From a virus (Duplodnaviria > Caudoviricetes), in IMG/VR virus record IMGVR_UViG_3300021400_000379, positions 1 to 64,000 of that record: a stretch of DNA of 64,000 bases, one strand, 5' to 3'. Of the stretch, positions 6,302 through 53,344 are shown piece by piece. A model generated the notes under the pieces. The model searched no databases. It was given only the letters and a program-made list of their open reading frames with translations, and was not told where the DNA came from. Positions within the stretch are counted from its first letter, which is position 1. Each line of letters opens with the position of its first letter. The position numbers and the translations under genes were made by a program.

Positions 6302-6619
6302 ATGAAGATGGTTGTATTGGGAAGCAAGGAGATCAATCTGGTGGAACAGACCGCGACAAGACTGGCGCAGTTCTACTATGACATCTCATAGCCATGGGAT
6401 TTTGACGACGGATATGACACTCATGAAGACGCGATGGAAGCGGCAAAGCTTAGTTTCGCAGAGTCTATCGTGAGCGGAGAGGTATTCGACCTTCTTGAAG
6501 AGCTGGAGAGCTACAAGGATGTTCTGGACTCTCCGAAGTCCGATGAAGACGTCAGGCTCCTTGGAGAATGGTGTGCACTGAGAACCATGCTCACCAAACT
6601 GACCAAGACCTATTTTTGA
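6302..6619 (+). CDS. hypothetical protein with in-frame TAG at codon 30 (105 aa by read-through)
   Basis: ATG 6302 one base after the previous stop; TAG 6389-6391; frame continues into track ORF 6434..6619. Confidence 0.7.
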
Positions 6620-6633
6620 ACAGGGGGAGATCG

Positions 6634-6996
6634 ATGATTGATGAAGAAGACATACAGAATGTGTTGAAAGTAATACTCAGAGAAGGGAGAGTACCCTGCC
6701 CGGTAATGCTTACCGATAATCAATGGGATGAATTACTCGAAGATATCTGGGTAGAGCTCAAACACAGTGAGAATACGAGTACACGCGGCGAGCAGGAGGT
6801 CGGAATACCCGACCAAGACAGCCGTCTGGAGGAGTATTATTTCACTGCATGGGTCTCTCTGGATGGAGAGGACAAAGTATTGGAGGTCGAAGGTAAGATT
6901 CTGGTTTCGGTCGATGAACACATCGGACGTGACGCGGATGATACCTATGACGTTGATTGGGAAGTAGTGGACTACGAATACGAGTGGTTCACCTGA
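6634..6996 (+). CDS. highly acidic hypothetical protein
   Basis: GGGGAG RBS; strongly D/E-rich. Confidence 0.7.
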   Translation: MIDEEDIQNVLKVILREGRVPCPVMLTDNQWDELLEDIWVELKHSENTSTRGEQEVGIPDQDSRLEEYYFTAWVSLDGEDKVLEVEGKILVSVDEHIGRDADDTYDVDWEVVDYEYEWFT

Positions 6997-7045
6997 CCGA
7001 TCTCAAACTATTTCGTGAACGATTTTGAATTTTCGAGGAATGAAA

Positions 7046-8119: not shown

Positions 8120-8177
8120 CATTCACTGCGGGAGACCGCAATGATACAAACACTTTTTTGAAACAACCAAAGGAGAG

Positions 8178-9687: not shown

Positions 9688-10296
9688 ATGACACACGCAT
9701 TAGTTATTGTTGATATGCAGAATGACTTCATCGACGGAGCTTTTGCAAACCCTGAAGCACAGAAAATCGTACCGAAAGTGGCAGATCTCATCAGAAAATG
9801 GGACGGCCCGATTTATGTGACCCTTGATACTCACAAGGCCGAGGATTGGATGCGCACATCTTGGCATAAGGTCCTCAGGACTGAGATGGAGAAGCTCCCT
9901 GAGCATTGTATCAAATATACTCAGGGCTGGTTGCTTGCGCCCGAAATTGTCGAGGCGCTCAAGGGGAAAGATTACAAGATTATAGAGAAGGAGTCCTTCG
10001 CAGCAAGAGATTCCTTCCTGCATAGTTGCATAAATGTGTCGTCAGATATGAAATCTATCACCCTTGTCGGGCTCTGCACGGACATCTGCGTTGTATCTAA
10101 TGCATTGGAATTAGTTTCCGAGCACCCTTACACTACCGTGAGGGTTATCAGCGACTTGTGTGCGGGAACTACTCCCAAAAATCACGAAGCAGCCCTTGCA
10201 GTGATGATGTCCTGCTTGGTCGAGGTGACTGATTCTCATGAATTGCCTGAGGTATTGGATAAAGAAGTCAAAGAGAAGGAGGAGTATAATTGCTGA
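9688..10296 (+). CDS. pncA: nicotinamidase (isochorismatase-family cysteine hydrolase)
   Basis: VDMQNDF, TLDTH, HCI, K, GLCTDICV catalytic motifs; GAGGTGA RBS. Confidence 0.9.
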   Translation: MTHALVIVDMQNDFIDGAFANPEAQKIVPKVADLIRKWDGPIYVTLDTHKAEDWMRTSWHKVLRTEMEKLPEHCIKYTQGWLLAPEIVEALKGKDYKIIEKESFAARDSFLHSCINVSSDMKSITLVGLCTDICVVSNALELVSEHPYTTVRVISDLCAGTTPKNHEAALAVMMSCLVEVTDSHELPEVLDKEVKEKEEYNC

Positions 10297-11180
10297 CATT
10301 CAGAAACCTGAACGCGGGTATATGCGAACCCGTTCCAGACATCACCGTCAAATGGTACAATGACGGTACACCGAGCATACAGATACCAAGCCAATGGAAG
10401 GTATGTGGACAGCAGAACAGGGTACAGCTGGTCATCGAATGGAGGTTCGAAGCGGATATCTGGGAGAAGGAACTCTTCGTCTTGCAGTGCGTGATGGCGG
10501 AGATCGGTCGCGGAATCGGTGTGACCTTGTTCATGCCGTACGTGCCCAACGCCAGGATGGACAGGGTACCCCCAGCGAAGCGGGATGCATTCACTCTGAA
10601 GACGTTCGCCAAAATCATCAACAGTATGGGATTCGACAAGGTGGGCGTCCGTGACCCGCACTCCGACGTGACCACTGCGCTGATTGACAGGTGTGAGGCA
10701 GACAAGCCCTGGCCAGGAATAAACTGGTTGGCGGCGAATACCAACAAGCCTGTCTGGCTGTTCCCTGACGCGGGAGCGATGCACAGATACGCAGACATTA
10801 TCCCTGAGGGGCAGGACGTGACCTATGGAACGAAGGTGAGGAACTGGGATACTCAGTACATCGAAGGATACAAGCTGATGGCTGGGAACATGCTGTGCGG
10901 TCGCAACGTGGTCATCGTGGACGACATAATCTCCCACGGATACACCCTGCTGTTCCTGCTGAAGGCGCTGGAGGAGTACTGCCCGAAGTCGGTGAAGATA
11001 TATGCGACACACGTCGAGGACTCCTTTGCCGACGGAGAGCTGTATAAGCAGCTCCGTAGCGGAGAGCTGAACGCCGAGGTGTACACGAGCAACTCGATAG
11101 TTAGGAAGAGGATACAAGAGGAAACTGTGGCGATCAATCCAACGGTAATCCGTTTGAAAATAAAGGAGGAGAAGGAATGA
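10290..11180 (+). CDS. phage-type ribose-phosphate pyrophosphokinase-like protein (candidate ADPR-PP synthetase)
   Basis: MPYVPNARMDR, DPHSDV, FPDAGA, KVR, IVDDIISHGYT. Confidence 0.85.
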   Translation: MLTFRNLNAGICEPVPDITVKWYNDGTPSIQIPSQWKVCGQQNRVQLVIEWRFEADIWEKELFVLQCVMAEIGRGIGVTLFMPYVPNARMDRVPPAKRDAFTLKTFAKIINSMGFDKVGVRDPHSDVTTALIDRCEADKPWPGINWLAANTNKPVWLFPDAGAMHRYADIIPEGQDVTYGTKVRNWDTQYIEGYKLMAGNMLCGRNVVIVDDIISHGYTLLFLLKALEEYCPKSVKIYATHVEDSFADGELYKQLRSGELNAEVYTSNSIVRKRIQEETVAINPTVIRLKIKEEKE

Positions 11181-12664
11181 AATACAACCCAATGTTAGCA
11201 TGCGACTATTACAAAGCAGTTCACGCACAGATGTTACCGAAAGGTATCACCAAGTCCGTGAGCTACTTCACACCAAGGAGCTCACGCATTCCCGGATGGG
11301 ATACGGCAGTGTTCTTCGGACTGCAGGGATTCATCAAGGAATATCTCATCGAGATGTTCAACGAGAATTTCTTCGGAAGACCTAGATTCAAGGTGATGAC
11401 AGAGATCAGGGCTGTCTTTGAGAATACCTTAGGCCCTCTGGAGTCCACGAATTACAAGAATATCGAACAGCTCCACGAACTCGGTTATCTGCCGATCGAG
11501 ATCAGGGCTTTGCCTGAGGGAATCCATGTCCCGATGGGTGTTCCGATGTTCTCCATCACGAACACCCACCCTGATTTCGCATGGCTCCCCCAGTATCTGG
11601 AGTCCTTGATATCCAGTGAGATGTGGCACGGAATCATCGTCGCAACCGTGGCAGACAAGTACAGGCAGATTGTGGATAAGTGGTATGAAAAGACCGTTGA
11701 AGACCCTTCTACCGCGAAGTTCGCCCTGAGTTGTTTTGATATGAGGGGTGAAGAATCGTTCTCCGATGCAGTGAAAGCGGGAGCAGCATGGGCAACATCC
11801 TTCGTGCCTTGTGCAACGGTGGAGACCGCACGGTACCTGAACGAGTATTATTACGTATTGGGTAGATCAATCTCCGGATCTCCTTCCACCGAGCACGCAG
11901 TGATGTGTTCCAATGCAGCTGTCGACGGGGATGAGGAAACATTCGTGAAAAGGATGCTGAAGGAAATATATCCTACGCAGAACTTCTCGATTGTGCTCGA
12001 TTCCTACGACTACTGGAGGATGGTGAAGGAAGTCCTTCCCAAGCTGAAAGAAGACATCCTTGCACATGATGGGTGCATGCTGGTTCGCGGAGATTCAGGC
12101 GACCCTGTCGAGGTAGTCACCCAGACCGTATTCGCACTGTGGGATATCTTCGGAGGCACTGCCAATTCCAAGGGCTACAAGGTTCTGGACCCGCACATTA
12201 AGGCAATCTATGGGGATGGAATCACCTTGCAGAGATGTGAGGAGATTTATTCCATCTTAGAGAGCCACGGATTCGCGGCCAACAACGTTGCATTGGGTGT
12301 GGGATCATATTCGATGCAGGCGGTAAACATCGATGGAGTGCACTATCCTTTCACAAGGGATACGTTCAACATCGCGATCAAAGCCACCTACATCGAAGTG
12401 AACGGGAAACCGTACATGATTCAGAAGAGCCCCAAGGTAAACGGAGCACACGGAGAGACTACCGAGTACTTCAAGAAATCCAAGAAAGGATGCATCGGGG
12501 TGTACAACGACTATTGTGATTATTATGCAAAAGATATGCTCACATACGATGAATTCACAAAAGACCCAGACAATCAGTTGAAAACAGTATTCAAAGACGG
12601 AAAGATAACTAAACCTACCTCATTGGATACTATCAGAGATCTTCTTGACTTCTATAGGGAGTGA
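11177..12664 (+). CDS. NAMPT-fold nicotinate/nicotinamide phosphoribosyl- or ADP-ribosyl-transferase
   Basis: DYYK..H, STEHAVMC, VLDSYD, RGDSGDP, IYGDGIT, TRDT, KKSKKG. Confidence 0.9.
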   Translation: MKYNPMLACDYYKAVHAQMLPKGITKSVSYFTPRSSRIPGWDTAVFFGLQGFIKEYLIEMFNENFFGRPRFKVMTEIRAVFENTLGPLESTNYKNIEQLHELGYLPIEIRALPEGIHVPMGVPMFSITNTHPDFAWLPQYLESLISSEMWHGIIVATVADKYRQIVDKWYEKTVEDPSTAKFALSCFDMRGEESFSDAVKAGAAWATSFVPCATVETARYLNEYYYVLGRSISGSPSTEHAVMCSNAAVDGDEETFVKRMLKEIYPTQNFSIVLDSYDYWRMVKEVLPKLKEDILAHDGCMLVRGDSGDPVEVVTQTVFALWDIFGGTANSKGYKVLDPHIKAIYGDGITLQRCEEIYSILESHGFAANNVALGVGSYSMQAVNIDGVHYPFTRDTFNIAIKATYIEVNGKPYMIQKSPKVNGAHGETTEYFKKSKKGCIGVYNDYCDYYAKDMLTYDEFTKDPDNQLKTVFKDGKITKPTSLDTIRDLLDFYRE

Positions 12665-12669
12665 AATAA

Positions 12670-13524
12670 ATGGACGACTACATGAAAGATTATGACGCAG
12701 AAGCCGCAGCAGACGATCTGATCAGGTGGATCAGGGCGTTCTTCAAGGGTTCTGGAGGTAAGACCGCGGTTATAGGTATGAGCGGAGGAAAGGACTCCAC
12801 CATCGTAGCAGCCTTGTGTGCAGAAGCATTGGGAAAAGAGAATGTTGTGGGGGTGATTATGCCGAACAGAAGAATGAAAGACGAAAAGACCGCAGTGAAC
12901 GCCGCCATGAAGTATTGTGGTAAATGGATGTACAGGTCTATCGGACCTGCATATCTCCACTTCGCGATCGGTGCAGGTTACAATGAATGCACTCCCAAGA
13001 TGGATAGAGATATCTATTGGGAAGATGGCCGTCACTGGTTGGAGCTTAGGGGGTTAGACGGATATGATCCTCACCTGACTGTGACAGACACAGCAGTCAT
13101 TAACCTCCCCGCTAGATTGAGGATGTGCGCACTGTACTTCGTGGCGCAGTGTGTAGAGCACGGCAGGGTCGCGAATACCTGCAACCTCTCCGAGGACTGG
13201 GTAGGGTATGCAACCCGTTACGGAGATGGAGCAGGAGATTTCGCGCCGTTGCACGATTATACCGTGCAAGAGGTCAAGGCCATCGGACATTATTTGGGCG
13301 TTCCCAAAGAGCTGGTCGAGAAAGTACCCGACGACGGACTCTGCGGCAAGACTGACGAGGACAATCTGGGATTCACATACGAGGTGTTGGACAGGTATAT
13401 CCGCACGGGCGAGTGTGAAGATCAGGCAGTCAAAGAAAAGATAGACCAGATGCATGTGAGGAATCTGTTCAAACTTGAACCGATACCCTATTGCTACAAT
13501 GGGTGGTGGAAAAACAAGGAGTGA
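12670..13524 (+). CDS. nadE: NH3-dependent NAD+ synthetase
   Basis: GMSGGKDS PP-loop, NLPARLRM, TCNLSE, GYATRYGDG, PDDGL, DEDNLG. Confidence 0.93.
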   Translation: MDDYMKDYDAEAAADDLIRWIRAFFKGSGGKTAVIGMSGGKDSTIVAALCAEALGKENVVGVIMPNRRMKDEKTAVNAAMKYCGKWMYRSIGPAYLHFAIGAGYNECTPKMDRDIYWEDGRHWLELRGLDGYDPHLTVTDTAVINLPARLRMCALYFVAQCVEHGRVANTCNLSEDWVGYATRYGDGAGDFAPLHDYTVQEVKAIGHYLGVPKELVEKVPDDGLCGKTDEDNLGFTYEVLDRYIRTGECEDQAVKEKIDQMHVRNLFKLEPIPYCYNGWWKNKE

Positions 13525-13529
13525 TACAT

Positions 13530-13760
13530 ATGAGTGTCGATAAGGCTTGGATTGATTAGTACCAGCAGGCGAAGGATAAATTGTGTAACGCGCTGTCTGA
13601 ATTTGAGTGGCAAGTCCTGGATCAAGTTCCAGATGCATTTTCAGGACATACTGATGAGATGTTTTCTGAAATTTCCAGACTTAGGGTGCAGTTGAGGGTA
13701 TATACCGATTTCCTCTGGGCTGCATACAACCTTGATAAGAAATTCGGAGATGTAGAATAA
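13530..13760 (+). CDS. hypothetical protein with in-frame TAG at codon 10 (76 aa by read-through)
   Basis: AAGGAGTGA RBS, ATG 13530, TAG 13557-13559, open to TAA 13758-13760; fills the gap after nadE. Confidence 0.75.
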
Positions 13761-13775: not shown

Positions 13776-14120
13776 ATGACTGATGAAGAAGTATGGGTCG
13801 AGGACCAACCGCTGTCTGAGACCGCAAAGAAAGTTCTTGAGCTTTTGCCCGAGAGCACCAAAGAGAAATCTGAGCTGATCCTGGAGATTATGGCACACGA
13901 CACAGATCTCGTCGACGCAGTATTCGGGAGATGGATTTACGAAATCCAAGCATACATGTTATCTGAATGCGGAGAAGATGCAGAGAAATCCAACGATTTC
14001 GTACGGACATTCTATGAAAACTGCAAATATCTTGCAATGTCTGCGAAAGAGAAATACTTCCCAGACGTCGAACTGACATTCGATGCAATGAAGGACTACG
14101 AACCCGAAAAGGAGGAGTGA
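13776..14120 (+). CDS. acidic hypothetical protein
   Basis: GAGGTGA RBS. Confidence 0.75.
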   Translation: MTDEEVWVEDQPLSETAKKVLELLPESTKEKSELILEIMAHDTDLVDAVFGRWIYEIQAYMLSECGEDAEKSNDFVRTFYENCKYLAMSAKEKYFPDVELTFDAMKDYEPEKEE

Positions 14121-15503: not shown

Positions 15504-15652
15504 TTGAGGATTTGAAATCATGTCCTTGTTGTGGTTCATCGAGAATCCATGTCGTAGCACCAGATGACGGATGTTATTGTTGGGACTGCGGATTGACTAT
15601 GCCCAAGCGTCCTGATTGGAGAGCGCGTTGGAACAGGAGAGCGGATGAATGA
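15500..15652 (+). CDS. Lar-like (restriction alleviation) Zn-ribbon microprotein
   Basis: LKSCPCCGS...CWDCG...WNRRA; not in the ORF track. Confidence 0.65.
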   Translation: MIEDLKSCPCCGSSRIHVVAPDDGCYCWDCGLTMPKRPDWRARWNRRADE

Positions 15653-15810
15653 CGACAATCAAGGTGACTGCTGAACTTGTATTCGAAACCGAAGAAGAGT
15701 TCAATAAATTCATGGATGACTGGAATTGTTGCGACGACGAGGAATGCGTATAGATTCCTGCAGGATGGATAAACAAAGTGAACTGGAGAGAATTACACAG
15801 GGAAGAATAA
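15649..15810 (+). CDS. small protein with in-frame TAG at codon 35 (53 aa by read-through)
   Basis: ATGA overlap; TAG 15751-15753; TAA 15808-15810 two bases before the next ATG. Confidence 0.55.
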
Positions 15811-15812
15811 AA

Positions 15813-16085
15813 ATGACAAAAATTGCAAAAATTAAGCAAGGTGGAATATTCAAAGCCGGTAAGGTAATGATAACCACCATCAAGAAGAACGGAGAAGAAG
15901 GCGAAACAAAAGCATACAACATTAGTGGCAAGGTGAAGATTGAGGACATGGACGGTAAACATATCCTGAACTTCACCTCCATTTCAGGCGGGTCGGCAGG
16001 CGTCACGTCCAGAGGCACTGTAAGTGCCAGGGCGTATACAAGGCGTCAGTCGATTGTCGTAGATGAATATACATTCATCAACTGA
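15813..16085 (+). CDS. hypothetical protein
   Basis: ATG 15813 in frame with track ORF 15726..16085. Confidence 0.65.
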   Translation: MTKIAKIKQGGIFKAGKVMITTIKKNGEEGETKAYNISGKVKIEDMDGKHILNFTSISGGSAGVTSRGTVSARAYTRRQSIVVDEYTFIN

Positions 16086-16132
16086 TAAACTATTTCGAAA
16101 CTTATTAATTGAACTTTGAAAGGAGTGAAAAT

Positions 16133-17638
16133 ATGGAAAATATTGATGTGAAACAGCTGTATAGGATGAATGTGATTGACAACACCGAGGTCACCGAGAA
16201 CGGAGTGCGTAAGCCCAAGGCAGACCACTACTATTCATATGAGATGATCTACAATTCGGGTATTGACGGAGGATGGGAGAAGAGGAGAGACGGCGTTGCA
16301 ATAGCAAGGTTGTTCCTTCTGCCTTCCCAGACCAAGTATTTTACTATGGACCTGTCTTCTAAAAAGAAAGCGGCCAACCCCGTTGCAGAGATCTTGACTG
16401 CGAGGACATTCGTCAACTTCTGGAACAGACTTCCGTCGCATACTGTCGAGTACGACCATGAAGTGTTCGATTATTTCGAGAGGGCCCCCAAATTCTTGAG
16501 CAATTTACTGTCGGTAATAGAGCACAAGAATTTCCTTCCCGCATGTAAGTTGGGATTGATGGCAATCCACAGCCACCGCTGGGATATCGACCGCGGATCC
16601 TACTTCATGAATCGTATGAAGATTACCGAATCTACTCCGCTGAATAAGTATATCATCAAGGTCGCACAGGAGTCTGGTATAGACAAGGAAGTGATCAATC
16701 ATGCTATTTCCGGAGAATATTCTGGTAATGGTAAGCTAAATCGGTCAGTCCTGAAATTCTTCAGCAACTGTGAGAAATTGTACGGACTGGACTCTACAAA
16801 GACCCACTTCGTAGACAAATGGTTCAGGGAGTTGGATATGTATGGAGATGGAGACAGCATGAGTGACCTCGCGGCGATTTTCATTAAACATGGAGGATAC
16901 GGAGATGATCTGCCCAAATCATATAATGGCGATCTCGAGAAGGCCGCACATGATAACCTCAGGGTATTCGACCCTAAGACTCTCTCGGATTATCTGTTCT
17001 ATGGGCTGAAACGTCAGGGACTCCTCGACATCGGCAGGGCAGGAATGTACTTGAAGGATACCTACAGAGCTCAGGAGACTCTGTATGGTAAAATCAAGGA
17101 GAAATATCCCCCTGCGCTTGCAACACTCCATGACCAGATGAACTATAAAATCCGTGTCTATGAGTCCATCCAGGAAGCAGACGCATACCTGAAGAGGGCA
17201 AAAGATGGAGCTATTTACGAGGGAGAGGCCTATGGATATGTACTCAAACTTCTCAGCACTACGGGAGATGTCATCGATGAGGCGACTCAGATGGCGAACT
17301 GTGTCAAGACATACATCAAGTACGTTATCAATGGACAGTGTTTCCTGATGGGTCTGAGGAGGAAAGCTACTCCTGATGAATCTCTTGTAACCGTAGAGAT
17401 CAGGAACGGTGAGCCTGTGCAGATATACAGGGCTCACAACACCCCTGTCACAGCCGCAGATAAATATGCGCTGTGGACCATCATGAAGAAATATTATGAC
17501 GCTCACAGTATGACCGAAAAATCGGCCAAAGCAAAAGCAGCGATTGCCGAAGTCAAGGACGAGGCGATTGCAGAATTGGAGGCAATGAAAAAGAAGGAAA
17601 AGGAAGATAAGCAGGGCGCAAAAGAGGAAAAGGCATAA
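16133..17638 (+). CDS. PcfJ-domain protein
   Basis: C-terminal EATQMANCVKTY...GLRRK..PDESLVTVEIR...QIYRAHN. Confidence 0.75.
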   Translation: MENIDVKQLYRMNVIDNTEVTENGVRKPKADHYYSYEMIYNSGIDGGWEKRRDGVAIARLFLLPSQTKYFTMDLSSKKKAANPVAEILTARTFVNFWNRLPSHTVEYDHEVFDYFERAPKFLSNLLSVIEHKNFLPACKLGLMAIHSHRWDIDRGSYFMNRMKITESTPLNKYIIKVAQESGIDKEVINHAISGEYSGNGKLNRSVLKFFSNCEKLYGLDSTKTHFVDKWFRELDMYGDGDSMSDLAAIFIKHGGYGDDLPKSYNGDLEKAAHDNLRVFDPKTLSDYLFYGLKRQGLLDIGRAGMYLKDTYRAQETLYGKIKEKYPPALATLHDQMNYKIRVYESIQEADAYLKRAKDGAIYEGEAYGYVLKLLSTTGDVIDEATQMANCVKTYIKYVINGQCFLMGLRRKATPDESLVTVEIRNGEPVQIYRAHNTPVTAADKYALWTIMKKYYDAHSMTEKSAKAKAAIAEVKDEAIAELEAMKKKEKEDKQGAKEEKA

Positions 17639-24197: not shown

Positions 24198-24371
24198 ATG
24201 GCAAATGATCAAGAGGAGGGTCGGTATTATGCCGTTCCTCCGTGTATATGTCCGCCTACTTGTAAGAAGTGTAGGTCTAATGCAAATATAGAAATCCTAG
24301 ACCGCCCAGATAGTTGGACTTACTACTGTGTTAAATGCCGTCGCGAGATTGATGCGGAGGAATTCATGTGA
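24198..24371 (+). CDS. Zn-finger microprotein
   Basis: CKKC...CVKC. Confidence 0.6.
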   Translation: MANDQEEGRYYAVPPCICPPTCKKCRSNANIEILDRPDSWTYYCVKCRREIDAEEFM

Positions 24372-24607
24372 CCGAGCCCATAGCTGTAATCGCCACCTGC
24401 ATCAGGTCGTATAATGATAAGCTGGAGCCGATATGGCTCGCAAAGTTACTGAAACTGTAGAAGAAGACGTATGGCCGTACACTGATCTGTACTGCTCTGG
24501 ACCAACTGTCCGATTTATGCCTTTTAGAGGGTGTATGGATGAAACTAGATGGGCGGTGGATCCGGACTCTGAGAGTACCTGAGGACAACCCATGGGGGAC
24601 ACAATAA
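24368..24607 (+). CDS. winged-helix protein with in-frame TAG at codon 31 (79 aa by read-through)
   Basis: GTGA overlap, GGAGG RBS, TAG 24458-24460, ALDQLSDLCLLEGVWMKLDGRWIR wHTH downstream, TAA directly before the terminator. Confidence 0.75.
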
Positions 24608-28290: not shown

Positions 28291-28353
28291 AGTAATTACA
28301 CCTGTTGTTATGAGAATTTATCTCGTCAAATATAAAGGTATATCATAAATTAC

Positions 28354-32887: not shown

Positions 32888-32925
32888 AGTGATTACCTAT
32901 CTAAGAATTGCGTTCCTTCTATATA

Positions 32926-33948: not shown

Positions 33949-34667
33949 CAGGGTGACCTCCAGTACTTGGTCGGACGCTTTCCGCCCTTTCCGAGAGATG
34001 AGTCCTCCCATACCGATTCGGGCAGGTCCGCACCGTTAGTGTCTTGACCGTCGACGACGACTTCTCCCCCTACAATGGACCAATTGGAGATAGGTTCGAA
34101 TTTATAGCTGTCCTTCAGAACACCCGTAATCTCCATGCCATTGTACTCGAAGACGTCTTTGATCTTCTTGCAGAGCTTTTCGGCGATTTCCAGGATTGTT
34201 CCCCCCTCATCTATGAAGGAGGTCGCGTTCCCTTCTCCGCCTCCGATCTCACGCATGATCAGGTCTATAGACGACCTCACTGCTGGGCTGGGTGCGGTAC
34301 CTTCCTTATTGATTTTGTCTATGAATGCCATGGTAAGTTTACGCATACGGTTCTCATCGGGCGCGGTACGAATCCTCTTAGCAACCCAATTGCGCATCCT
34401 CTCCACGGTCTCGGCACTATTTGGGTCTAGCTGATTCTCTCTGGGTAATGTGCCAAACTCGACCAATGGTGCATATGGGCAGTCCGAATATACTATTGCG
34501 GGTTGAAGTTTCAGGACACCGTCCTTTGTATTTTCTTCTATGGAGTCGTCCATCATACCCTCTAGGAGGTCCTGAAGAAGGTCTGCACTGCCCTCTTCAT
34601 CTATGTCGATATCCATTTCAATCTTGACCTGGATCGTAACCTCTTCAGGGGTATCTGACGCCATCAC
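33948..34667 (-). CDS. HK97 gp10-like neck or minor morphogenesis protein
   Basis: PYAPLVEFGT motif; GT.P.P. Confidence 0.6.
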   Translation of the reverse strand: MMASDTPEEVTIQVKIEMDIDIDEEGSADLLQDLLEGMMDDSIEENTKDGVLKLQPAIVYSDCPYAPLVEFGTLPRENQLDPNSAETVERMRNWVAKRIRTAPDENRMRKLTMAFIDKINKEGTAPSPAVRSSIDLIMREIGGGEGNATSFIDEGGTILEIAEKLCKKIKDVFEYNGMEITGVLKDSYKFEPISNWSIVGGEVVVDGQDTNGADLPESVWEDSSLGKGGKRPTKYWRSP

Positions 34668-36427
34668 ATCGCTCCTGCTTCTCCATCTGCTTCATCCATG
34701 GACTCGTCAACCTCGCTTTTGGTCGCGTCGATTTCCGGGTCCTCCCTGCGGGCGGTGCCCTTGTCTGGTCCTCCGTGTTCCCTGTTCGGGTCCTCGGTAC
34801 CCATCGGAGGGGCCTGTGGAGCCATTGCCTGCATCTGCATCTGTGCGGCTTGCATCTGTTCCTGAGCTCTGCGCTGAATCTGGTCTATCGGCTCCTCGGA
34901 ATAACGGAACTCACCGTCCTCACAGAAGATGTCGAATCCGAGCTGCTTCATCCTAGAGATGAATTCAAGTTCATCCATACGCTTCTTGTGCTCGGTGTGT
35001 GCCTTGGATGGGCGGTCTACAACAAGGGAATAATCCTGGATCTGCGGGACCCAGCCTACGAAGAACTTAAGCAGGTTATCGACCCTATTAAAGAATCCTT
35101 GGATAGACCTGTCGAAGACTGTGATCTGCTGGCTCTCGTTATTCAATCCTCCGCTGGACTGAGAATCACCTGAAAATATGTCGGTTACACCGACATGGGT
35201 ACACATCCTGCGCCTGACGTCATCCTTGACTGCCAGTGCCTCATCGATGCTCTCCGCACCAAGCTCGATTGCCTGGGCTTTAAGTTCAGGCGTTCCGGGG
35301 AGAGGAGGTGGAGTACAGACGATCGGGATGGACGAGTTGTTGGTCGCAAGGATGGACTGGATACCCTGGGTAATCGCTTCTGCGGCATCGTCGTCAAATC
35401 CGGGAAGCAGGAGAATCTTACGGACATATCCGTTCTGGTACCTCTTGTATAGGAGCTTCTCGATATAGTGGTACACAAGGATGTCGTCCTCCATATCAAA
35501 CCAGATGGGGACTCCGTAGATGAGTGACTGTGTGAACCATTTATCCTGATACACTTCTTCTCCGGTATAGTACCAACATGGGCCGGTACCTCCGTAGTTC
35601 ATACCAATCTGCCACTCTGCTGGGTATAAGACCTCTCCCGCATCAGTCATAGTCTGCATGACCTCTGGATTCTCATCCAGATCATACATCACCTGTCTGT
35701 TACTCCTTGTAAATCCATATTTGGTACCGGGTTTACCGGTGTCGTCATACAGGTACTTCACATATTTCGGGTCTTGGAATAGGAACTCCATAGGGTAGGC
35801 GCGGATGAGCTCACCCGTCTCATGATCTACCACATCGCCCGTAATACATACAATATACGCTTGGTTGTTCTGAATTTCAGAATATGCGTATGCAAATACG
35901 ACATCCAGCAGGGACTGATGGCTGTCGTTGGCTTCCTCCAGGAAGGATTTCCCGTTAGGCCTTCTGAAGTATTCCAACTGGTGGGGGTCGGGCTTTCTTA
36001 ATTTGGTGCCCCCGCATTTCGGACATTTGTGTGCATATGTCTGCAACTCATATCCGCAAGAGGGATTCATACACTTCAGATAGAAATTTGGAACCCATGT
36101 GAGTCCATATCTCAAAACCTCCCTGGGAATTGTGAGTTCGAGGGAAGATAATGCCGAACATTCACTGGTATACCAGTCCATAAGTGCATAATTGTGCCAG
36201 AAACTCGTTACACCGTTATACCTGTACAAGAGGTTGGTCGGACGTTCTCCTCCAACCACGTCAACAGATTGGTGGATCCGAGACCTCGCAACCGCACTAT
36301 CCAAGTCCGCTCCAAAAGCCTCCTTTGGCGCGCCCATAAAGGATTCAAAAGTGTTCACAGGTGTCGCGGGTGACCTCTCTGCAATAGATGATTTGGATAA
36401 ACGGCCCGACCCGTAGACTTTTACCAT
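34664..36427 (-). CDS. portal protein with Zn-ribbon insertion
   Basis: Follows terminase; YGVP, GGLNNESQQITV; CMNPSC...CPKC insertion. Confidence 0.85.
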   Translation of the reverse strand: MVKVYGSGRLSKSSIAERSPATPVNTFESFMGAPKEAFGADLDSAVARSRIHQSVDVVGGERPTNLLYRYNGVTSFWHNYALMDWYTSECSALSSLELTIPREVLRYGLTWVPNFYLKCMNPSCGYELQTYAHKCPKCGGTKLRKPDPHQLEYFRRPNGKSFLEEANDSHQSLLDVVFAYAYSEIQNNQAYIVCITGDVVDHETGELIRAYPMEFLFQDPKYVKYLYDDTGKPGTKYGFTRSNRQVMYDLDENPEVMQTMTDAGEVLYPAEWQIGMNYGGTGPCWYYTGEEVYQDKWFTQSLIYGVPIWFDMEDDILVYHYIEKLLYKRYQNGYVRKILLLPGFDDDAAEAITQGIQSILATNNSSIPIVCTPPPLPGTPELKAQAIELGAESIDEALAVKDDVRRRMCTHVGVTDIFSGDSQSSGGLNNESQQITVFDRSIQGFFNRVDNLLKFFVGWVPQIQDYSLVVDRPSKAHTEHKKRMDELEFISRMKQLGFDIFCEDGEFRYSEEPIDQIQRRAQEQMQAAQMQMQAMAPQAPPMGTEDPNREHGGPDKGTARREDPEIDATKSEVDESMDEADGEAGAM

Positions 36428-36428
36428 A

Positions 36429-37952
36429 TTATCGCCTCATAATCTGATCATTTCTATTTATAGTGTAACCCAAGCGCTTGCTTTGAGTGACGGTTTGCGG
36501 GTCTACCTCTCCGCACACTCTGGGTGTAGTGCGTGCACCCTCGACAGGCGTCTCCACCGTGCCCAAGACGCGAACAGTGTTCTTCTTTTCCGCTGGAGGA
36601 ACATAGCTGTCTGAATCCAATGCAGACACGATTCCTCTGCCCTTCACGAAGAACTTGGCACATGCATACCTAAGAGCGTCCATAGCGTGATCAAAATCCT
36701 TCACAGGTTTACCCGTGAATTTTCCATCCTTGTCAACCTCATAACAGTAGTTATTGAGCTCAATGATTACGTTCCTGCACTTTGGATGTACGATGATGTG
36801 GTATGACTGGAGATTCTGGATTCCGTTCATCACCGAATCAGGACCCTTGAGTGCGGGCCTGATGCGGGGGAGCTGCCAGTGCACGACCGTGGAATTGACG
36901 TCGTCCAACTGTACCTCCTCATCAAATCCGTTTTGGAGTTCAAAGATGGACTTCGGCTCGGCGGCGTCTGCCCAGATCTCCTCTTTAGCGTATCCCATAG
37001 AGGTAAGCTTCTTGGCAATATCGATATTGGATAGGCCCTTTTCATACAATTCATCGTAGACCCAGATGATATGTTTATTGAGATCGATCAACACTGCTAC
37101 GAACGCGTTGAAGCTGATCTTATATCCAAAGTCTAACCCGAATGTGGATTTGACAGTGGGGGATTTCATTATCTCCCATGGGTCGAATTCCTTCTCCTCC
37201 CAATCCTCGTAGATGAGTCCTTCCGCAATACCCCAATCTCCGTCACAGATAACTCTCGCTGCACGAGGATTACGGACGTACATATCCTCGTAACGGACGA
37301 TATCATCGGGCCCTAGCCATTCGTTACACTTATACGTCGTGACCTTGGTGAAGATCCTGTCCTTCTCCTTCTCATGTGGATTGTCCCAGAACCTCTCCTT
37401 GAGCCAGGTGTGCTCTGACCAGGGGTTGAAGGTCAGAGTCACCTGCTTCCAAAGGCCTGTCTCAGGGGGCAGATAACCACGAATGGACATGACCAGCTTA
37501 TCAAAGTCGGCCTCATTGGTGATCTCATATGCCTCTTCGATCCAGACCCAGCAGAGGTATCCCTTACGTACCGTGATGGACGCAAGCTTCAGAGGGTCAT
37601 CCATACCTCTGAACAGAATGACTTGCCCTGTCTGGGTATTGGTAATCTGCAGAGGATTGACAGAGCATTTCCAATATTGTGTAGTTCCCGTGCGGTCGAT
37701 TGCCCATTGTAAATCTGTATAGCATGACTGCTGAAGCGTACCGAAGACCTTACGCACAACCAACGCATTGGCCTGCGGGTATTGCATCATCTTGAGAATC
37801 AGGTCTAAGGCAGTAGTCTTGGATTTCTTCGATCCTTTTGACCCTCTGCATACCCTATAGAACTTTTTGGTGCGGATAAAGTCATTATATCCGCCTCCAA
37901 AAAGTGCCCTCAAGCTTGTGACAGGGCGCTCATCCAGACTCGTCTGGGTCAT
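36429..37952 (-). CDS. terL: terminase large subunit (PBSX family)
   Basis: GSKGSKKS Walker A, WIEEA, LTFNP, GLDFG, ADAAEP, DHAMDALRY. Confidence 0.95.
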   Translation of the reverse strand: MTQTSLDERPVTSLRALFGGGYNDFIRTKKFYRVCRGSKGSKKSKTTALDLILKMMQYPQANALVVRKVFGTLQQSCYTDLQWAIDRTGTTQYWKCSVNPLQITNTQTGQVILFRGMDDPLKLASITVRKGYLCWVWIEEAYEITNEADFDKLVMSIRGYLPPETGLWKQVTLTFNPWSEHTWLKERFWDNPHEKEKDRIFTKVTTYKCNEWLGPDDIVRYEDMYVRNPRAARVICDGDWGIAEGLIYEDWEEKEFDPWEIMKSPTVKSTFGLDFGYKISFNAFVAVLIDLNKHIIWVYDELYEKGLSNIDIAKKLTSMGYAKEEIWADAAEPKSIFELQNGFDEEVQLDDVNSTVVHWQLPRIRPALKGPDSVMNGIQNLQSYHIIVHPKCRNVIIELNNYCYEVDKDGKFTGKPVKDFDHAMDALRYACAKFFVKGRGIVSALDSDSYVPPAEKKNTVRVLGTVETPVEGARTTPRVCGEVDPQTVTQSKRLGYTINRNDQIMRR

Positions 37953-41219: not shown

Positions 41220-41294
41220 GCCTCTATGGCCTAACAGAATGGCACTCGCCCTGTAAGCGAGCGATTGTGGGTGCAAGTCCCATTGGAGGCTCCA
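41220..41294 (+). tRNA. tRNA-Thr(UGU), atypical (C33, TGCAAGT T-loop)
   Basis: Acceptor GCCTCTA/TGGAGGC, U73, CCA; anticodon arm CTCGC-CCTGTAA-GCGAG. Confidence 0.8.
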
Positions 41295-41295
41295 T

Positions 41296-41371
41296 GTCCA
41301 GGTAACTCAGCTGGTAGAGTGTTCGGCTGTTAACCGAACTGTCCAAGGTTCAAGTCCTTGCCTGGACGCCA
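41296..41371 (+). tRNA. tRNA-Asn(GUU)
   Basis: Canonical cloverleaf, loop CTGTTAA, CCA. Confidence 0.95.
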
Positions 41372-41373
41372 AT

Positions 41374-41449
41374 AAGGGGGTAGGGAAGAGGTCATCCCAC
41401 TTGGCTCATAACCAAGAGATCGGTGGTTCAAGTCCATCCCCCCTTACCA
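41374..41449 (+). tRNA. tRNA-Met(CAU), archaeal initiator-like
   Basis: A1-U72, GGGA/TCCC D-stem, loop CTCATAA, CCA. Confidence 0.85.
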
Positions 41450-41454
41450 CTAAA

Positions 41455-41505
41455 CACAGACAGGTGATCAAACTGCAACTGGGAACTAGGTGCCTGTCTG
41501 TGACC
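41455..41505 (+). ncRNA. minihelix-like hairpin between tRNAs
   Basis: CACAGACAGG/CCTGTCTGTG 10-bp stem followed by ACC. Confidence 0.45.
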
Positions 41506-41513
41506 TTTAATCT

Positions 41514-41589
41514 GGGTTCGTGGTGTAGCTTGGCATCACCGTTGCCCTGGGAGCAACAGACTGCGGTTCAAATCCGCACGAACCCACCA
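41514..41589 (+). tRNA. tRNA-Pro(UGG) with C33
   Basis: GGGTTCG/CGAACCC; arm GTTGC-CCTGGGA-GCAAC; CCA. Confidence 0.9.
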
Positions 41590-41591
41590 AT

Positions 41592-41669
41592 GGACGTATA
41601 GCATAGTCGGTCCAATGCGCCGTTCTTATAAAGCGGAGATCGCCCGTTCGAATCGGGTTACGTCCACCA
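41592..41669 (+). tRNA. tRNA-Ile(UAU)
   Basis: GGACGTA/TACGTCC; arm CCGTT-CTTATAA-AGCGG; A73, CCA. Confidence 0.9.
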
Positions 41670-41671
41670 AT

Positions 41672-41749
41672 GGGCCTGTATCTCAGACAGGTTTGAGAAC
41701 CCGCCTTTTAAGCGGGTAGACAGGGGTTCGAATCCCCTCAGGCCCACCA
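41672..41749 (+). tRNA. tRNA-Lys(UUU)
   Basis: Arm CCCGC-CTTTTAA-GCGGG; CCA. Confidence 0.93.
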
Positions 41750-41754
41750 TAAAC

Positions 41755-41827
41755 AGTCCCGTAGTGTAGCGGTCAAGCACCTCGGCCTTTGGAGCCGATA
41801 ACCCTGGTTCGAATCCGGGCGGGACTA
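41755..41827 (+). tRNA. tRNA-Gln(UUG)
   Basis: Archaeal A1-U72 acceptor AGTCCCG/CGGGACT; loop CTTTGGA. Confidence 0.93.
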
Positions 41828-41832
41828 CCTAT

Positions 41833-41908
41833 GCCATCATAGGACAGTGACGAAACCGCCCGCTTCGTAAACGGGAGAGCGTGGGTTAGAAACCCACTGA
41901 TGGCACCA
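41833..41908 (+). tRNA. degenerate tRNA, probably Thr(CGU)
   Basis: GCCATCA/TGATGGC plus ACCA; loop TTCGTAA with C31-A39 mismatch; T-loop TTAGAAA; weak D-arm. Confidence 0.6.
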
Positions 41909-41909
41909 A

Positions 41910-41994
41910 GGGGAGATAGTCTAGCCTGGTAAGGCGGCAGTCTTGAAAACTGCAGCGACTCGGTCGCATGGGGGTTCAAATCCCTCTCTCCCCG
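41910..41994 (+). tRNA. tRNA-Ser(UGA)
   Basis: Long variable arm GCGAC-TCG-GTCGC; loop CTTGAAA; G73. Confidence 0.93.
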
Positions 41995-42010
41995 CTAATT
42001 TTAAAATTTT

Positions 42011-49653: not shown

Positions 49654-50401
49654 TATAGCTCACCTCTGCTTCATAATATTCGCGTTCATCTATATCAAAA
49701 GGTACGGAGAAATTCCCGGACATCGCATACCAGACCTTCTGTCCGTCTTTGATATAGAGTTTATACCATGCGCCTGTGTCAAGCGCGACCGCTGTGTCTC
49801 CTGATTCTGCGTCGCCCGTATACTCTGGATTATTCAGGTCCGCCTCGGTAGGCACCTCGAAATGGTCCTCCGCAAGGTCGCTGAGTCCGATACTGAAGAC
49901 TGAATCATCCACACGGGTGAATGTGAATGTGGATGTACTGTCATCATATGACACGTCCTTGATGACGCTGGATACCGCGGGCAGCTCGACCGCAAGTCCC
50001 TCCCTGATCAGTAACGCATCGATGAAGGAGTGAGGCATTTGCAGGGTGTCCAACGCAGATTGCTCGATTATGAGCTCTGGGTCCTCCCCGTCTACCGTGA
50101 ATGCGAGAACATAGCGGAGTTTGTTCTGGGTCGCACGCCTGGATACCGCATACGGTATAGGGAATGTATATCCGTTGAAGGCGGGGCGGGTGACGGGGGA
50201 GAAATAGATCCTCTTCCCTCTATCATCGAAGACATCGAATACGATGAATGGGACACGACCGTCCAAATACCCCTGCTGGGTATATGTGAAATGCAAAATC
50301 ACGGAGCTCTCGTCCTCGGTCGTTCCGCCAGCGCCTCCGGGAGATTTAATACTCAATTTCCTGGTCTGGGGGTCGTATTCCCTGAAGATATGTGTGGTCA
50401 T
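49646..50401 (-). CDS. BppU-like baseplate or fibre adaptor
   Basis: N-terminal domain paralogous to 50398..50877. Confidence 0.5.
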   Translation of the reverse strand: MTTHIFREYDPQTRKLSIKSPGGAGGTTEDESSVILHFTYTQQGYLDGRVPFIVFDVFDDRGKRIYFSPVTRPAFNGYTFPIPYAVSRRATQNKLRYVLAFTVDGEDPELIIEQSALDTLQMPHSFIDALLIREGLAVELPAVSSVIKDVSYDDSTSTFTFTRVDDSVFSIGLSDLAEDHFEVPTEADLNNPEYTGDAESGDTAVALDTGAWYKLYIKDGQKVWYAMSGNFSVPFDIDEREYYEAEVSYSD

Positions 50402-50877
50402 GCTCCGCCTCCGGCCTGATCCTCCAAAGCCGTGACCCTCGCCTCCAAATCGGCCAGGGTCTGCCTGAGTGCAGTCAGTTCGACAGCTGCTGGCACAGGG
50501 CTATCGGCCATACCTTGTGGATCTTGGATGGACCGTGAGAACTGTGCAACGTCGATCACGCTCTGTTCGACATAATTGAGATTGGTCTTGCCGATGAGTA
50601 TGAGCTGGTACTCAAGCTTATTCTGGGTCACCTTCGAGGTCACCTCGTAAGGTAATGCGATGGAGCAGGAGCTGAAATCGTACCAATATGGCTCATATGT
50701 CTCGGGATCGAGCACATTGAACGCGATGAACGCGTCCTTATCGTCCAAATACCCCTGCGGGAAGTCTACGATCAGGACTGTGGACTCGGAGTCGTTCACC
50801 ACTCCTCCTGTGTTGCCTGATTTGGCTCTGAAATCCCTCGTCTGGGGGATGTATTCGCGACGGATTACGGTCGACAT
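50398..50877 (-). CDS. BppU-like adaptor with C-terminal coiled coil
   Basis: REY.PQTR...GG....S..L...QGYLD; LEARVTALE. Confidence 0.5.
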   Translation of the reverse strand: MSTVIRREYIPQTRDFRAKSGNTGGVVNDSESTVLIVDFPQGYLDDKDAFIAFNVLDPETYEPYWYDFSSCSIALPYEVTSKVTQNKLEYQLILIGKTNLNYVEQSVIDVAQFSRSIQDPQGMADSPVPAAVELTALRQTLADLEARVTALEDQAGGGA

Positions 50878-50929
50878 GTGCTCACGATAGTCACATATCT
50901 CAACCGAGGTTATTAAATGCTCTCCTTTC

Positions 50930-53344
50930 TCAGCTATTATTGAGCTGCGAGACAGTATTGGCCAAATCGAGCTGTTTGCTGATACCGAATGAGTATTTTG
51001 TACGCCCAGAGGGGTATTCTCTTGAATATTTTGACAGTGCCAGCTTCTGCGGATAGTATCTGCTGGGGAATTTCAGCCCCATCGCGGATACTGCGAGGTC
51101 CTGTTCGATATCGGTGAACTGTTTGACCGAGCTTACCGCGGGGAACAGCGCAGACCAGTAAGAATCAGGGCTGGTCTCGCCGTATGACCCGGAATTACGC
51201 TCGTTCGCGGTGAATGAGACCGATGTTCTGGTCTCTCCCCAATAGGCGAGCACCATATACAGCACCTTTCTGGCATAATACTCGGGCAGGACTGCGAAAT
51301 ACTGTGTCAGGTCAAGAGTATACAGCCCAGGGCCTTCCCCGATATCCTTGATGGACTGCTCAGCCATGTCGCGGATGCTCGCATACTCGGGATTTTCCGA
51401 AGATACGGAGTATTTTACGCATGGGCCGTCTCCCGAAAGGGGAGAGATCCATTCTCCGATGATAGGGTCGCTCAGGTCGTCCGCTTTATACCTGCCGAAC
51501 TAGATCGTACGGGTCTTGACGGCCTTTTCCAGGCTCGTATATACGTTATATTTCACCGCGACCGTGTTATATGTCGTGGTAGAACCCTGTGCGTCCTGAG
51601 ATACAGTCCCGTAAACCCTTCCCATCAGACGGTCATATGTACGTTCGCTGTGCAACTCGACGGAATCCAGAGTAGCCCTCCAGTCCTCGGGGCTCATTTC
51701 AATTGCCTGGATGTTTCCCATCGCCTCGTCCCACCCGAATGATGGGTTGCTGCCCATATCAAGACCTGATCTCACGATGAGCCTGTTGAACGCTGTCCTC
51801 TTACGCTCGTCAGACCAGTCCTCGGATGCGGTACTGGGTATGTTCTCTGGCACTTCATCTGCCAATTTGGTATAATCTATGATATAAGCCCTGCTGTTCG
51901 CGAAGAATATGCGTGCGTTGCATATCATCGCGCATATCTGGAGGGTCGTCCAGATGTTCGCCCCCTTGATTATGGGGATGAACTCATCATGTGCGCTACC
52001 GAGCACGTCTAGAGTCATATCCTTCACGACGTCCTCATCGGTATGGATTGGTGCAGACCTGACCGCATTCACGGAAATCTTCGACACGTCCACGTTGGAT
52101 ATGATCTGGTAAGGCAAGTAATAGTACCGTGAGTACAGCCCCGTACCGATGATATCCAGGATCATCGACAGCGGATCGGTCCAAGTGATGTTTGACGTGA
52201 ATTTCATACCGCGGATTTCGCTGATTCCGCAATATGCGATCATATCGTAGGAATTATCCCGCAGGGCACACTCAGTCACGATATATTCCCCCCTGCCTAC
52301 GGCATTTATCTGCAGCTTGCTCTCACCGGGCTGGATTATCGCGATTACCTTATCAGTCTGCATGTTCACATTCCCAGCCAGTTCGGGATATGTTCTCATG
52401 AATGCCCTTTTGGATAATTTTAGGGACACGTGCTCAAAAGGCTCCTCCAGTCCGCCGGTCATTGTATATGAGCTCACCAAGTCAAGACCCATATACCCTC
52501 CGTGCGAGGGGTCTGGTTGACCCTGTCTCGACCCGATGGTCAACGCGTATTCGGGAGTCTGTATCAGCACCCCGTTCAACTTCTTGACCGCCCTGACCTT
52601 GATGGACGTGTCCCTGGTGAAATACCACTCGTTATACTCGTTATACGCATTGTAACAGCTTGCGGTATTCAGATTGTCATAGATGGGGATATATCTGAGG
52701 GCGGGGTTCTTCTCATATAGCTCCCTAGGAATTGCCTCATACTCTCCGTCTATGTGAGTGAAGAGCACACTATCCTCGTGCCCCTCGGACAGTTTCTCGG
52801 TCAGCCTGCCGCCTACCACTACGACCATGGACCCCGTGAGGTATTCCGAGTCTCCGCAGTTCAAGTCGATCTCCACTTCTTGTACGAAGATGTTCACCGC
52901 ATGGCTGGAAGGTAACATCAGAGTTTGAGGGATGAATGTCTCTGTATCCTTTGTGATGTCCTCTGCATTCTTGGTATTGATGAACATGGTGTAACCGTCG
53001 GTCTTGATCTGCCACCTGTTTGCCAAGGACATGAGCGCGTCGCACCATTTGGCATTAGTCCATTTCCAAGAGGTCTTATCATAGTCGTCATCGTACACAT
53101 AGGTCATATATGTGCCGTTAGGCAACTTTTTCAAGGGGTTCTTGCGGGCAAATGTGAATGTATAACTGTTCGAGGTGTTGGATTCCAGCGCGTATGTCGA
53201 ATCTGTAGGCAGATTAGGGATGGGGATTGCGGTAATAGCCTTGTTCAGTGTGTCTGTAATCCCTGTCACTATCCCCAGATCATACATCGTTCCTGAATTC
53301 GTGCTGAAGCCCGTCCTTATCTGGATTAGTCCATATTCATCCAT
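50930..53344 (-). CDS. tail or baseplate protein, 804 aa by read-through of TAG at codon 615
   Basis: Track ORFs 51500..53368 and 50930..51367 are in frame and joined by 44 stop-free codons after the TAG at 51500-51502. Confidence 0.75.

Follow-up and report, generated by a model that had tools for sequence, protein, structure and literature searches.

The window analysed here, a stretch of 64,000 nucleotides, corresponds to bases 1-64000 of IMG/VR virus record IMGVR_UViG_3300021400_000379, a single contig of 99,638 bp, and therefore covers about two thirds of the virus genome. Five open reading frames (ORFs) of the window, bounded by TAA or TGA, contain an in-frame TAG codon, located at 6389-6391, 13557-13559, 15751-15753 and 24458-24460 on the plus strand and at 51502-51500 on the minus strand; these positions agree with those given in a preliminary description of the window, in which TAG was proposed to be a sense codon, probably read as pyrrolysine (Pyl). 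The end of the contig repeats its first 108 bases, and the virus record is listed with direct terminal repeats. The contig encodes a large terminase, a portal, a prohead protease, an HK97-type capsid protein and tail-fibre-like proteins, together with a D5-type primase-helicase, an SNF2 helicase, a YqaJ exonuclease, ParB, RtcB, ThyX and a NAD salvage module. With its terminal repeat and its set of head, tail and replication genes, it is therefore a complete or nearly complete tailed virus genome.

The gene at 50930-53368 (minus strand), directly downstream of a gene encoding a 2711-residue protein with Flg_new repeats, codes for a tail-hub or distal-tail protein of 812 codons, with the TAG (51502-51500) at codon 623. 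Read-through of this TAG results in an in-frame fusion, and five database proteins of 844-882 residues align over 98-99% of the 812-residue product. The TAG sits in a gapped, variable linker between a conserved part of 620 residues and another of 190 residues, and conservation is strong past it, for example at FTDIEQ and PQKLALSKYSREYPSGRT. The nearest relative, 52% identical, is a database entry of 642 residues which ends at the same alignment column as the TAG. The DNA of this relative, present in three other samples (contigs L001, L002 and L003), also has TAG at this codon, and the frame beyond it is open and conserved for 189 codons.

The 44 codons between the tail-hub TAG and the next ATG include no start codon. 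When they were compared between the two viruses, nucleotide identity was 0.64, 0.64 and 0.39 at codon positions 1, 2 and 3, respectively, and the proportion of non-synonymous differences (pN) was 0.36 as compared to 0.78 for synonymous ones (pS), with the third position saturated. These codon comparisons show purifying selection on the 44 start-less codons, which is what the preliminary description had proposed to look for after the TAGs. Moreover, conservation starts at the first residue past the TAG (FGRY...), in alignment with full-length homologs, and therefore ribosomes must pass this codon. An alternative explanation is that the TAGs are true stops, in which case the tail hub would be split, with a second gene starting from the ATG at 51367, the small ORFs described below would be truncated, decaying or very short, and the preference for TGA would be compositional. 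This ATG, 45 codons past the TAG, is indeed conserved in both viruses, and gene callers give a product of 145-146 residues; however, a second gene starting there leaves out the 44 codons that are conserved at the protein level, and no Shine-Dalgarno motif precedes the internal ATG in the window. On the strength of the homolog alignments, we regard the tail-hub TAG as a proven internal codon. Structure matches of the tail hub in the Atlas (Phage_GPD, Prophage_tail and Sipho_Gp37) are leads only, with template modelling (TM) scores below 0.5 by query and a mean predicted local distance difference test (pLDDT) value of 0.37 for the Atlas model; the taxa returned by Atlas look-ups were only 'Viruses/Uroviricota', and a single-protein query gave no tail-hub homologs in IMG/VR.

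The second gene in which homologs extend across the TAG lies at 24368-24607 (plus strand) and encodes a 79-residue winged-helix (wHTH) protein, with the TAG (24458-24460) at codon 31, between helix 2 and helix 3. A GGAGG ribosome-binding site (RBS) precedes its GTG start, and its TAA is followed by a hairpin and T-run terminator. When the 79-residue product was compared by phmmer with 1.84 billion representatives, 20 matches at E ≤ 1e-3 were obtained (6.4e-8 for the best short-protein match), each aligned as a single segment covering about residues 3-73, across codon 31. Upstream of the TAG, W23 and L27 hardly vary in this alignment; downstream, D45, D49, W57 and W64 do not vary at all. The AlphaFold model of the read-through protein is a single domain (mean pLDDT 92.6, predicted TM score 0.81) made of three helices and a beta-hairpin wing, in the order helix-helix-helix-hairpin. 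Its best matches in the PDB are PadR/MarR-type regulators and wHTH proteins of archaeal viruses, with TM scores of 0.55-0.70 and E values of 0.008-0.09, which are modest, as usual for a domain of 80 residues. According to the model, a stop at codon 30 would cost the protein its recognition helix and wing, and this result also speaks against the TAGs being true stops. Considering the alignment, the wHTH TAG can likewise be taken as a proven internal codon. Alignment of homologs across the TAGs, another check suggested in the preliminary description, thus succeeded on both sides of the codon for the tail hub and the wHTH protein, and the residues aligned to the TAGs are variable. A member of the wHTH family is also carried by a viral contig from sheep rumen (L107), which contains two tandem EcoRI-type methylase paralogs (15641-17465, minus strand); the second of these DNA methyltransferase paralogs contains a single in-frame TAG, and similarity is strong both before and after it.

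The remaining three TAG-containing genes of the window are small, and no Pfam family was found for any of the small TAG genes. The first (6302-6619, plus strand; 105 residues) has its TAG (6389-6391) at codon 30. Its codon log-odds are 0.46 before the TAG and 0.42 after it, as compared to means of 0.35 in frame and -0.28 off frame, and the read-through frame finishes 14 nt before a GGGGGAG-ATG. A 92%-identical relative from another sample has been called as an ORF of 29 residues followed by one of 61 residues, with the same frame and spacing (known from the ORF calls only). The stop at codon 30 recurs in this other sample and is therefore no assembly slip. Codon usage and the ORF pair of the relative give the reading of 6302-6619 as an internal-TAG gene good indirect support.

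The ORF at 13530-13760 (plus strand; 76 residues) lies directly after nadE and has its TAG (13557-13559) at codon 10. A strong RBS (AAGGAG) precedes its ATG, the codon log-odds after the TAG are 0.20 over 67 codons, and the ORF finishes before a GAGGTGA-ATG (next gene at 13776). The search for homologs returned none besides the ORF itself, and in one relative this region is replaced. The ORF at 15649-15810 (plus strand; 53 residues), with the TAG (15751-15753) at codon 35, has a good RBS and a TAA located 2 nt ahead of the next ATG. Its log-odds are 0.50 before the TAG and 0.16 after it, the latter over only 19 codons, and no homologs of it were found. A close 2.3-kb metagenome contig, found with a PcfJ-like gene as query, is without the segment 15649-15810. 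Judging from their context, the ORFs at 13530-13760 and 15649-15810 are plausible internal-TAG genes; the latter is the weakest of the five cases, and its TAG could be a real stop. The segment 15040-15808, which holds the 53-residue ORF, is cleanly absent in a relative from bovine gut (joint 15039>15809, where 8 bases are inserted) and likewise in contig L092, and from this comparison it is a variable insert. None of the small TAG genes is encoded among the 80 loci obtained with NadE as query, which belong to unrelated gut phages of 90-200 kb, with about 50% identity and no synteny.

Outside the window, two further genes with an in-frame TAG are located at 91714-91974 and 92090-92458, both on the minus strand. 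One of them encodes 122 residues, with Cys-rich modules before as well as after the TAG and a TGA overlapping the next ATG, and the other has about 44 codons before the TAG and 21 after it. In-frame TAGs were thus found in seven ORFs of the genome, one in each, and no further candidates were found among the coding-like ORFs in all the uncovered stretches of the genome. That read-through ends just before the next start or at a terminator, as the preliminary description stated, was borne out at all five sites of the window; in the whole genome, each of the seven read-throughs stops short of the next start, overlaps it by the 4 nt of an ATGA or runs to a terminator. As to the claim that TAG is a sense codon, homologs prove it for two of the five window genes, a third has good indirect support, and context speaks for the other two.

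The TAGs are hardly explained as sequencing or assembly errors, or as minority alleles, a possibility to which we assign almost no probability. The evidence on this point comes from assembled contigs, and the only sample holding the full-length sequence is the probable source sample, which is a weakness also of the interpretation that we propose below. However, word depth in the assembled contigs of this likely source sample is about 66x, a second assembly of the same run shows no differences, the tail-hub TAG recurs in three other samples, and the stop at codon 30 of the gene at 6302 recurs in another one. In addition, seven independent errors all giving TAG, and never TAA or TGA, are not credible. 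In low-share runs, from bovine gut, scattered parts of the genome were present at 80-95% identity, with the TAG sites not visibly covered. No RNA data sets are included among the sequencing runs listed for the stretch.

Stop-codon usage was determined on genes called over the whole 99,638-bp genome with a self-trained three-periodic Markov model. This model penalises TAG by construction, and its total score with TAG as sense codon is uninformative. The 106 called genes end with TGA in 84 cases, with TAA in 19 and with TAG in 3 (79%, 18% and 3%), and the 63 genes called in the window end with TGA, TAA and TAG in 49, 13 and 1 cases, respectively. The number of about 90 genes, all ending with TGA or TAA, given in the preliminary description for the window was therefore too high, whereas the near-absence of TAG stops was correct (1 of 63). 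All 3 genes called as TAG-ended continue in frame beyond the TAG. When the longest ORFs were considered, 12 ended with TAG, and 9 of these had negative codon log-odds, being antisense or out of frame over better genes. Apart from the genes with an in-frame TAG, the TAG-terminated ORFs of at least 50 residues all have negative codon log-odds, as antisense or off-frame shadows, and by the same measure no coding-like ORF of the whole genome requires TAG as terminator. The ORF at 85342-85761 (minus strand), considered as a TAG-ended gene, was rejected; its codon log-odds are negative and it is probably no gene.

The probability of finding at most 3 TAG stops among 106 is 2e-8 when the median of archaea without Pyl, 22%, is taken as reference; the corresponding median of archaea with Pyl is 5% (PMC12626013). 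As a control, we used psiM2, a virus of a methanogen without Pyl (GC content 46%), in which TAG ends 6 of 32 genes (Fisher p=0.005 with respect to the present genome). The stop profile of the virus nearly matches that of 'Ca. Methanomethylophilus alvus', in which TAA and TAG account for 17% and 1.6% of the stops (PMC4153887). Off frame, the TAG trinucleotide occurs 9.5 times per 1000 codons, as compared to 12.2 for TAA and 22.3 for TGA, as the composition suggests. TAG is not avoided off frame, and therefore its scarcity at gene ends is not a general avoidance, which is a further point against the TAGs being true stops and the TGA preference compositional. The extensions after TAG are longer than those after TGA or TAA stops (Mann-Whitney p=0.0045, with a TAG set picked by eye). 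Taking TAG as a sense codon raised the coding density from 92.5% to 93.8% (greedy ORF cover), and the segments following the TAGs together account for about 1 kb out of 99.6 kb. The comparison of coding density and stop usage suggested in the preliminary description thus showed a gain of about 1% with TAG as sense, the 3 TAG stops of 106 genes all continuing.

A comparison with a collection of 50,697 phage records revealed vir335 (BK063680.1), whose recorded host is Methanomassiliicoccales and which originates from baboon faeces, as a relative in which 32 of the 106 proteins are matched, in the same gene order. The description of vir335 is reportedly due to Medvedeva et al. (2023). In this collection the capsid, protease and portal match only vir335 (E values of 1e-73, 1e-74 and 3e-142, respectively), the tail hub likewise matches only vir335, and no match was obtained for the wHTH gene. 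The large terminase subunit (TerL) is 49.5% identical to that of vir335. In the deposited annotation of vir335, 95 genes of 107 end with TGA, 9 with TAA and 3 with TAG, the latter being three dubious small low-complexity ORFs. The tail loci of five relatives have 36 TGA and 3 TAA stops, and TAG only at the internal tail-hub site. Relatives are present in bovine and sheep gut metagenomes.

Another relative (contig G001:C2; CAVICI010000002.1, 1-90731) is 90,731 bp long, has a terminal repeat of 832 bp, shares 40 of the 106 proteins and has a capsid protein with 48% identity. Its genes end with TGA in 67 cases and with TAA in 14, and the single TAG is located inside a D5-like primase-helicase gene (60500-62038, plus strand), whose product, when read through the TAG, aligns end to end with the 498-residue enzyme of the present virus; the TAG is aligned to Q. 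TAGs inside the primase-helicase gene and the DNA methyltransferase paralog of sister genomes also argue against true stops. That explanation can draw on the three window genes for which homolog proof is lacking; with the conserved start-less codons, the truncated wHTH domain and the off-frame frequencies against it, we consider it very improbable. Judged from these genomes, TAG scarcity and internal TAGs are a family trait of this viral lineage. Viral kinship and the stop-codon profile point to Methanomassiliicoccales as the host lineage, and on the same basis the amino acid for which TAG stands in the host is most likely pyrrolysine. The Flg_new repeats of the 2711-residue protein served as a further marker of the host lineage, as Flg_new proteins have been reported in gut Methanomassiliicoccales and their viruses (PMC10673518).

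The virus itself seems to have no means of decoding TAG. ARAGORN, run on the window and on the genome, and Rfam, run on all 99.6 kb, identified nine tRNA genes (Thr, Asn, Met, Pro, Ile-UAU, Lys, Gln, Thr and Ser) in a tight array at 41220-41995 (plus strand), and neither a tRNA(CUA) nor any other stop-reading tRNA, nor any tRNA besides the nine, was found in the 99.6 kb. A PylS match was also absent from the genome. These searches extend to the whole genome the observation made in the preliminary description for the window, from which dependence on the host had been deduced; as viral tRNA(CUA) and PylS are absent, the means of decoding TAG must be supplied by the host. No significant RNA structure was detected after the TAGs, the z-scores of 120-nt folds starting from each TAG ranging from -1.5 to +0.2, and the bases at position +1 of the seven TAGs (C, T, A, A, T, G and C) indicate no common context. 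The lack of RNA structure and the differing flanks argue against context-dependent programmed read-through. The absence of a stimulatory structure fits the context-free Pyl decoding of Code 34 archaea (10.1101/2024.09.30.615893).

The TAGs might be read through with an amino acid other than Pyl, either by a different amber suppressor, provided by the host or by a co-infecting element (TAG=Gln as in code 15, or similar), or by leaky near-cognate tRNAs. In one case, the primase TAG of the sister genome, the residue at the aligned position is Gln, and TAG=Gln recoding is well known from gut phages (PMC9523058). However, no tRNA(CUA) is encoded in the 99.6 kb, and the seven in-frame TAGs, one per gene, with a density gain of about 1%, are unlike those of code-15 phages; this rarity had already been taken in the preliminary description as a sign against TAG=Gln recoding, a view to which the density gain, the single TAG per gene and the missing suppressor tRNA all lend support. 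Furthermore, the only characterised kin of the lineage has a Pyl-decoding host order on record, neither a stimulatory RNA structure nor a common TAG context is present, and both a structural tail protein and a primase-helicase would be ill served by leaky read-through at a level of a few per cent. Insertion of a different residue is, for these reasons, decidedly unlikely in our view.

The alignments have shown, within the reach of a comparison of genes, that the TAGs are real, lie inside conserved genes and are followed by translated sequence; that the inserted residue is pyrrolysine we infer from the host lineage. Our explanation, which we consider probable, is that this is a virus of a Methanomassiliicoccales-infecting lineage whose genes end with TGA or TAA and whose tolerated TAGs are translated by the Pyl system of the host, with no viral suppressor. 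The lineage would infect Methanomassiliicoccales, which are methanogens of the gut and use Pyl-tRNA(CUA) to decode UAG. Since translation would not reliably terminate at UAG in these cells, viral genes would end with TGA or TAA. Occasional TAGs would arise by mutation and be tolerated at permissive sites, such as the tail-hub domain linker and, in the wHTH protein, the turn that joins helix 2 to helix 3. Since the virus is without a suppressor of its own, these TAGs would be translated by the host pylT, pylS and pylBCD products, and the full-length tail hub and regulator would depend on the host supply of charged tRNA-Pyl.

Several observations weigh against this explanation, in addition to the origin of the read evidence mentioned above. 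No amino acid is singled out by the residues that homologs have at the TAG positions, which vary (D, N, R, T, I, K, Q, S and E in the wHTH column). Three of the five window TAG genes are without homolog proof. The host label depends on one database record, that of vir335, and the similarity of TerL to Bacillus phages equals that to vir335. The only relative among GTDB species genomes is the 90.7-kb contig described above, which is part of a metagenome-assembled genome labelled Dialister hominis, a bacterium; because this contig is a free viral genome with terminal repeats, the label looks artefactual, and it is probably a binning artefact attached to a free sister virus. Finally, some Methanomethylophilaceae are without Pyl (PMC12626013).

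A variant of the host-decoding explanation is that UAG has a dual meaning, Pyl and stop, in the host, so that tail-hub isoforms of 622 and 812 residues would be produced in a set ratio, or the tail would be tied to Pyl supply. Dual reading of UAG is known in Methanosarcina acetivorans (PMC12626013), the tail-hub TAG is placed in the variable linker between the 620-residue and the 190-residue conserved parts, and it has been kept in two lineages whose synonymous sites are saturated. On the other hand, at 45-57% amino-acid identity about half of the codons keep their residue, and retention of the TAG is not statistically remarkable. More distant tail-hub homologs are one uninterrupted protein, the wHTH TAG would yield a useless fragment of 30 residues, and gut genomes of the Methanomethylophilus type have been reported as fully recoded (10.1101/2024.09.30.615893). 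Dual decoding is therefore possible, and to us somewhat unlikely. A step further, the amber codons of the tail hub and the wHTH protein (and of the sister primase-helicase) might be more than tolerated drift and act as a switch that, through the efficiency of UAG decoding, senses the methylamine and Pyl status of the host or sets the ratio of tail-hub isoforms; we think this quite unlikely.

The system in which decoding by the host would find its model is Code 34, under which every TAG in gut archaea of the Methanomethylophilus type reportedly stands for pyrrolysine, with no pyrrolysine insertion sequence (PYLIS) element involved (Kivenson et al., 10.1101/2024.09.30.615893); TAG-minimised genomes of Methanomassiliicoccales had been described by Borrel et al. 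(2014) (PMC4153887). As in these archaea, TAG is nearly absent as terminator in the virus. Category 1 genes (internal TAG, more than 30% identity on both sides, extension of more than 15 residues) are present, namely the tail hub (50930-53368) and the wHTH gene (24368-24607), with the primase-helicase and EcoRI-type methylase paralog of sister genomes as further cases, and large out-of-frame overlaps are absent, with no Category 4 gene (read-through with an out-of-frame overlap of more than 60 nt) among the seven read-throughs. The virus also resembles them in having no PYLIS-like structure, TAGs at variable and tolerant positions, and a stop profile like that of 'Ca. M. alvus'. Unlike Code 34 archaea, it is without pylT, pylS and pylBCD of its own and would borrow the code from its host, and TAG would be read as Pyl in a virion tail protein and in a DNA-binding regulator.

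With gut phages of code 15 (TAG=Gln) or code 4 (TGA=Trp), crAss-like and Lak phages among them (PMC9523058), the virus shares the presence of a standard stop codon inside essential conserved genes, including structural ones. Those phages differ from the code of their host, have many in-frame TAGs and usually suppressor tRNAs, and gain 5-10% or more in coding density, whereas the present virus would follow the code of its host and has seven single TAGs, no suppressor tRNA and a gain of about 1%. Compared to vir335, the head module is 35-50% identical and the stops are equally TAG-poor. However, the two viruses belong to different genus- or family-level branches, vir335 having a GC content of 58% and a genome of 83 kb and the present virus 49% and 99.6 kb. 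The tail-hub homolog of vir335, of 641 residues, contains no TAG, and no convincing internal TAG was seen in vir335. The isoform idea for the tail hub is based on M. acetivorans (Shalvarjian et al., 2025, PMC12626013), where transcripts with UAG can give truncated and extended products; that case concerns a cellular organism from a different order.

The Code 34 preprint does not mention viruses (10.1101/2024.09.30.615893), and a survey from 2026, covering 3,708 archaeal viral genomes, found none with a non-standard code (PMC13465236); the present genome does not reach the density gain of 5-10% used as criterion in that survey. Reviews of archaeal recoding give only frameshifts for archaeal viruses. 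In the literature searched, a virus borrowing the pyrrolysine decoding of its host is unreported, and it is an expected consequence of known host biology. Pyrrolysine is known mainly from methylamine methyltransferases, plus a scattering of cellular proteins. If our explanation is true, it would also be part of virion and regulatory proteins of a virus, the virus would be locked to UAG-decoding hosts, and a simple sequence signature would be available for recognising uncultivated viruses whose hosts are Pyl-decoding methanogens, a group relevant to methane from the rumen and trimethylamine in the gut. The case also points to a blind spot of annotation, since standard calls split or truncate such genes, and the tail hub is present in databases as a protein of 614 residues. 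These genes would offer a natural way of testing whether UAG is a sense codon in full or only in part in Methanomassiliicoccales.

As to the other features, the head and packaging module, which was used for the lineage and host assignment, occupies 26935-37952 on the minus strand and includes the genes for the major capsid protein (26935-28290), the prohead protease (32926-34011), the portal (34664-36427) and TerL (36429-37952). The 2711-residue protein upstream of the tail hub is encoded at 53349-61484 (minus strand), in the tape-measure position, and its Flg_new (Listeria-Bacteroides) repeats are matched by Pfam PF09479 in three stretches (E=3e-28). Upstream of it lies the gene of a 584-residue BspA-type leucine-rich-repeat protein (LRR_5, E=2e-88), the pair spanning 53349-63226 (minus strand). 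Both proteins have adhesin-like domains, of a type typical of gut methanogens. The NAD module (9688-13524, plus strand) comprises four genes, which encode an isochorismatase/nicotinamidase-like protein, a phosphoribosyltransferase similar to phosphoribosyl pyrophosphate (PRPP) synthetase, a NAMPT-family enzyme and NadE, and the NadE is about 50% identical to that of many gut phages of 90-200 kb.

A few TATA-like boxes were found 28-46 nt upstream of start codons, too weak for an argument on promoters. The octamer TTTATATA was considered as an archaeal promoter signal, given its enrichment in intergenic regions, and was rejected as too weak, five of its seven copies being located in one AT-rich region (75.7-76.0 kb). 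This region is a non-coding stretch of 430 bp (genome positions 75654-76083) between the primase-helicase and parB genes, where the five octamers are distributed on both strands, and it may be the replication origin.

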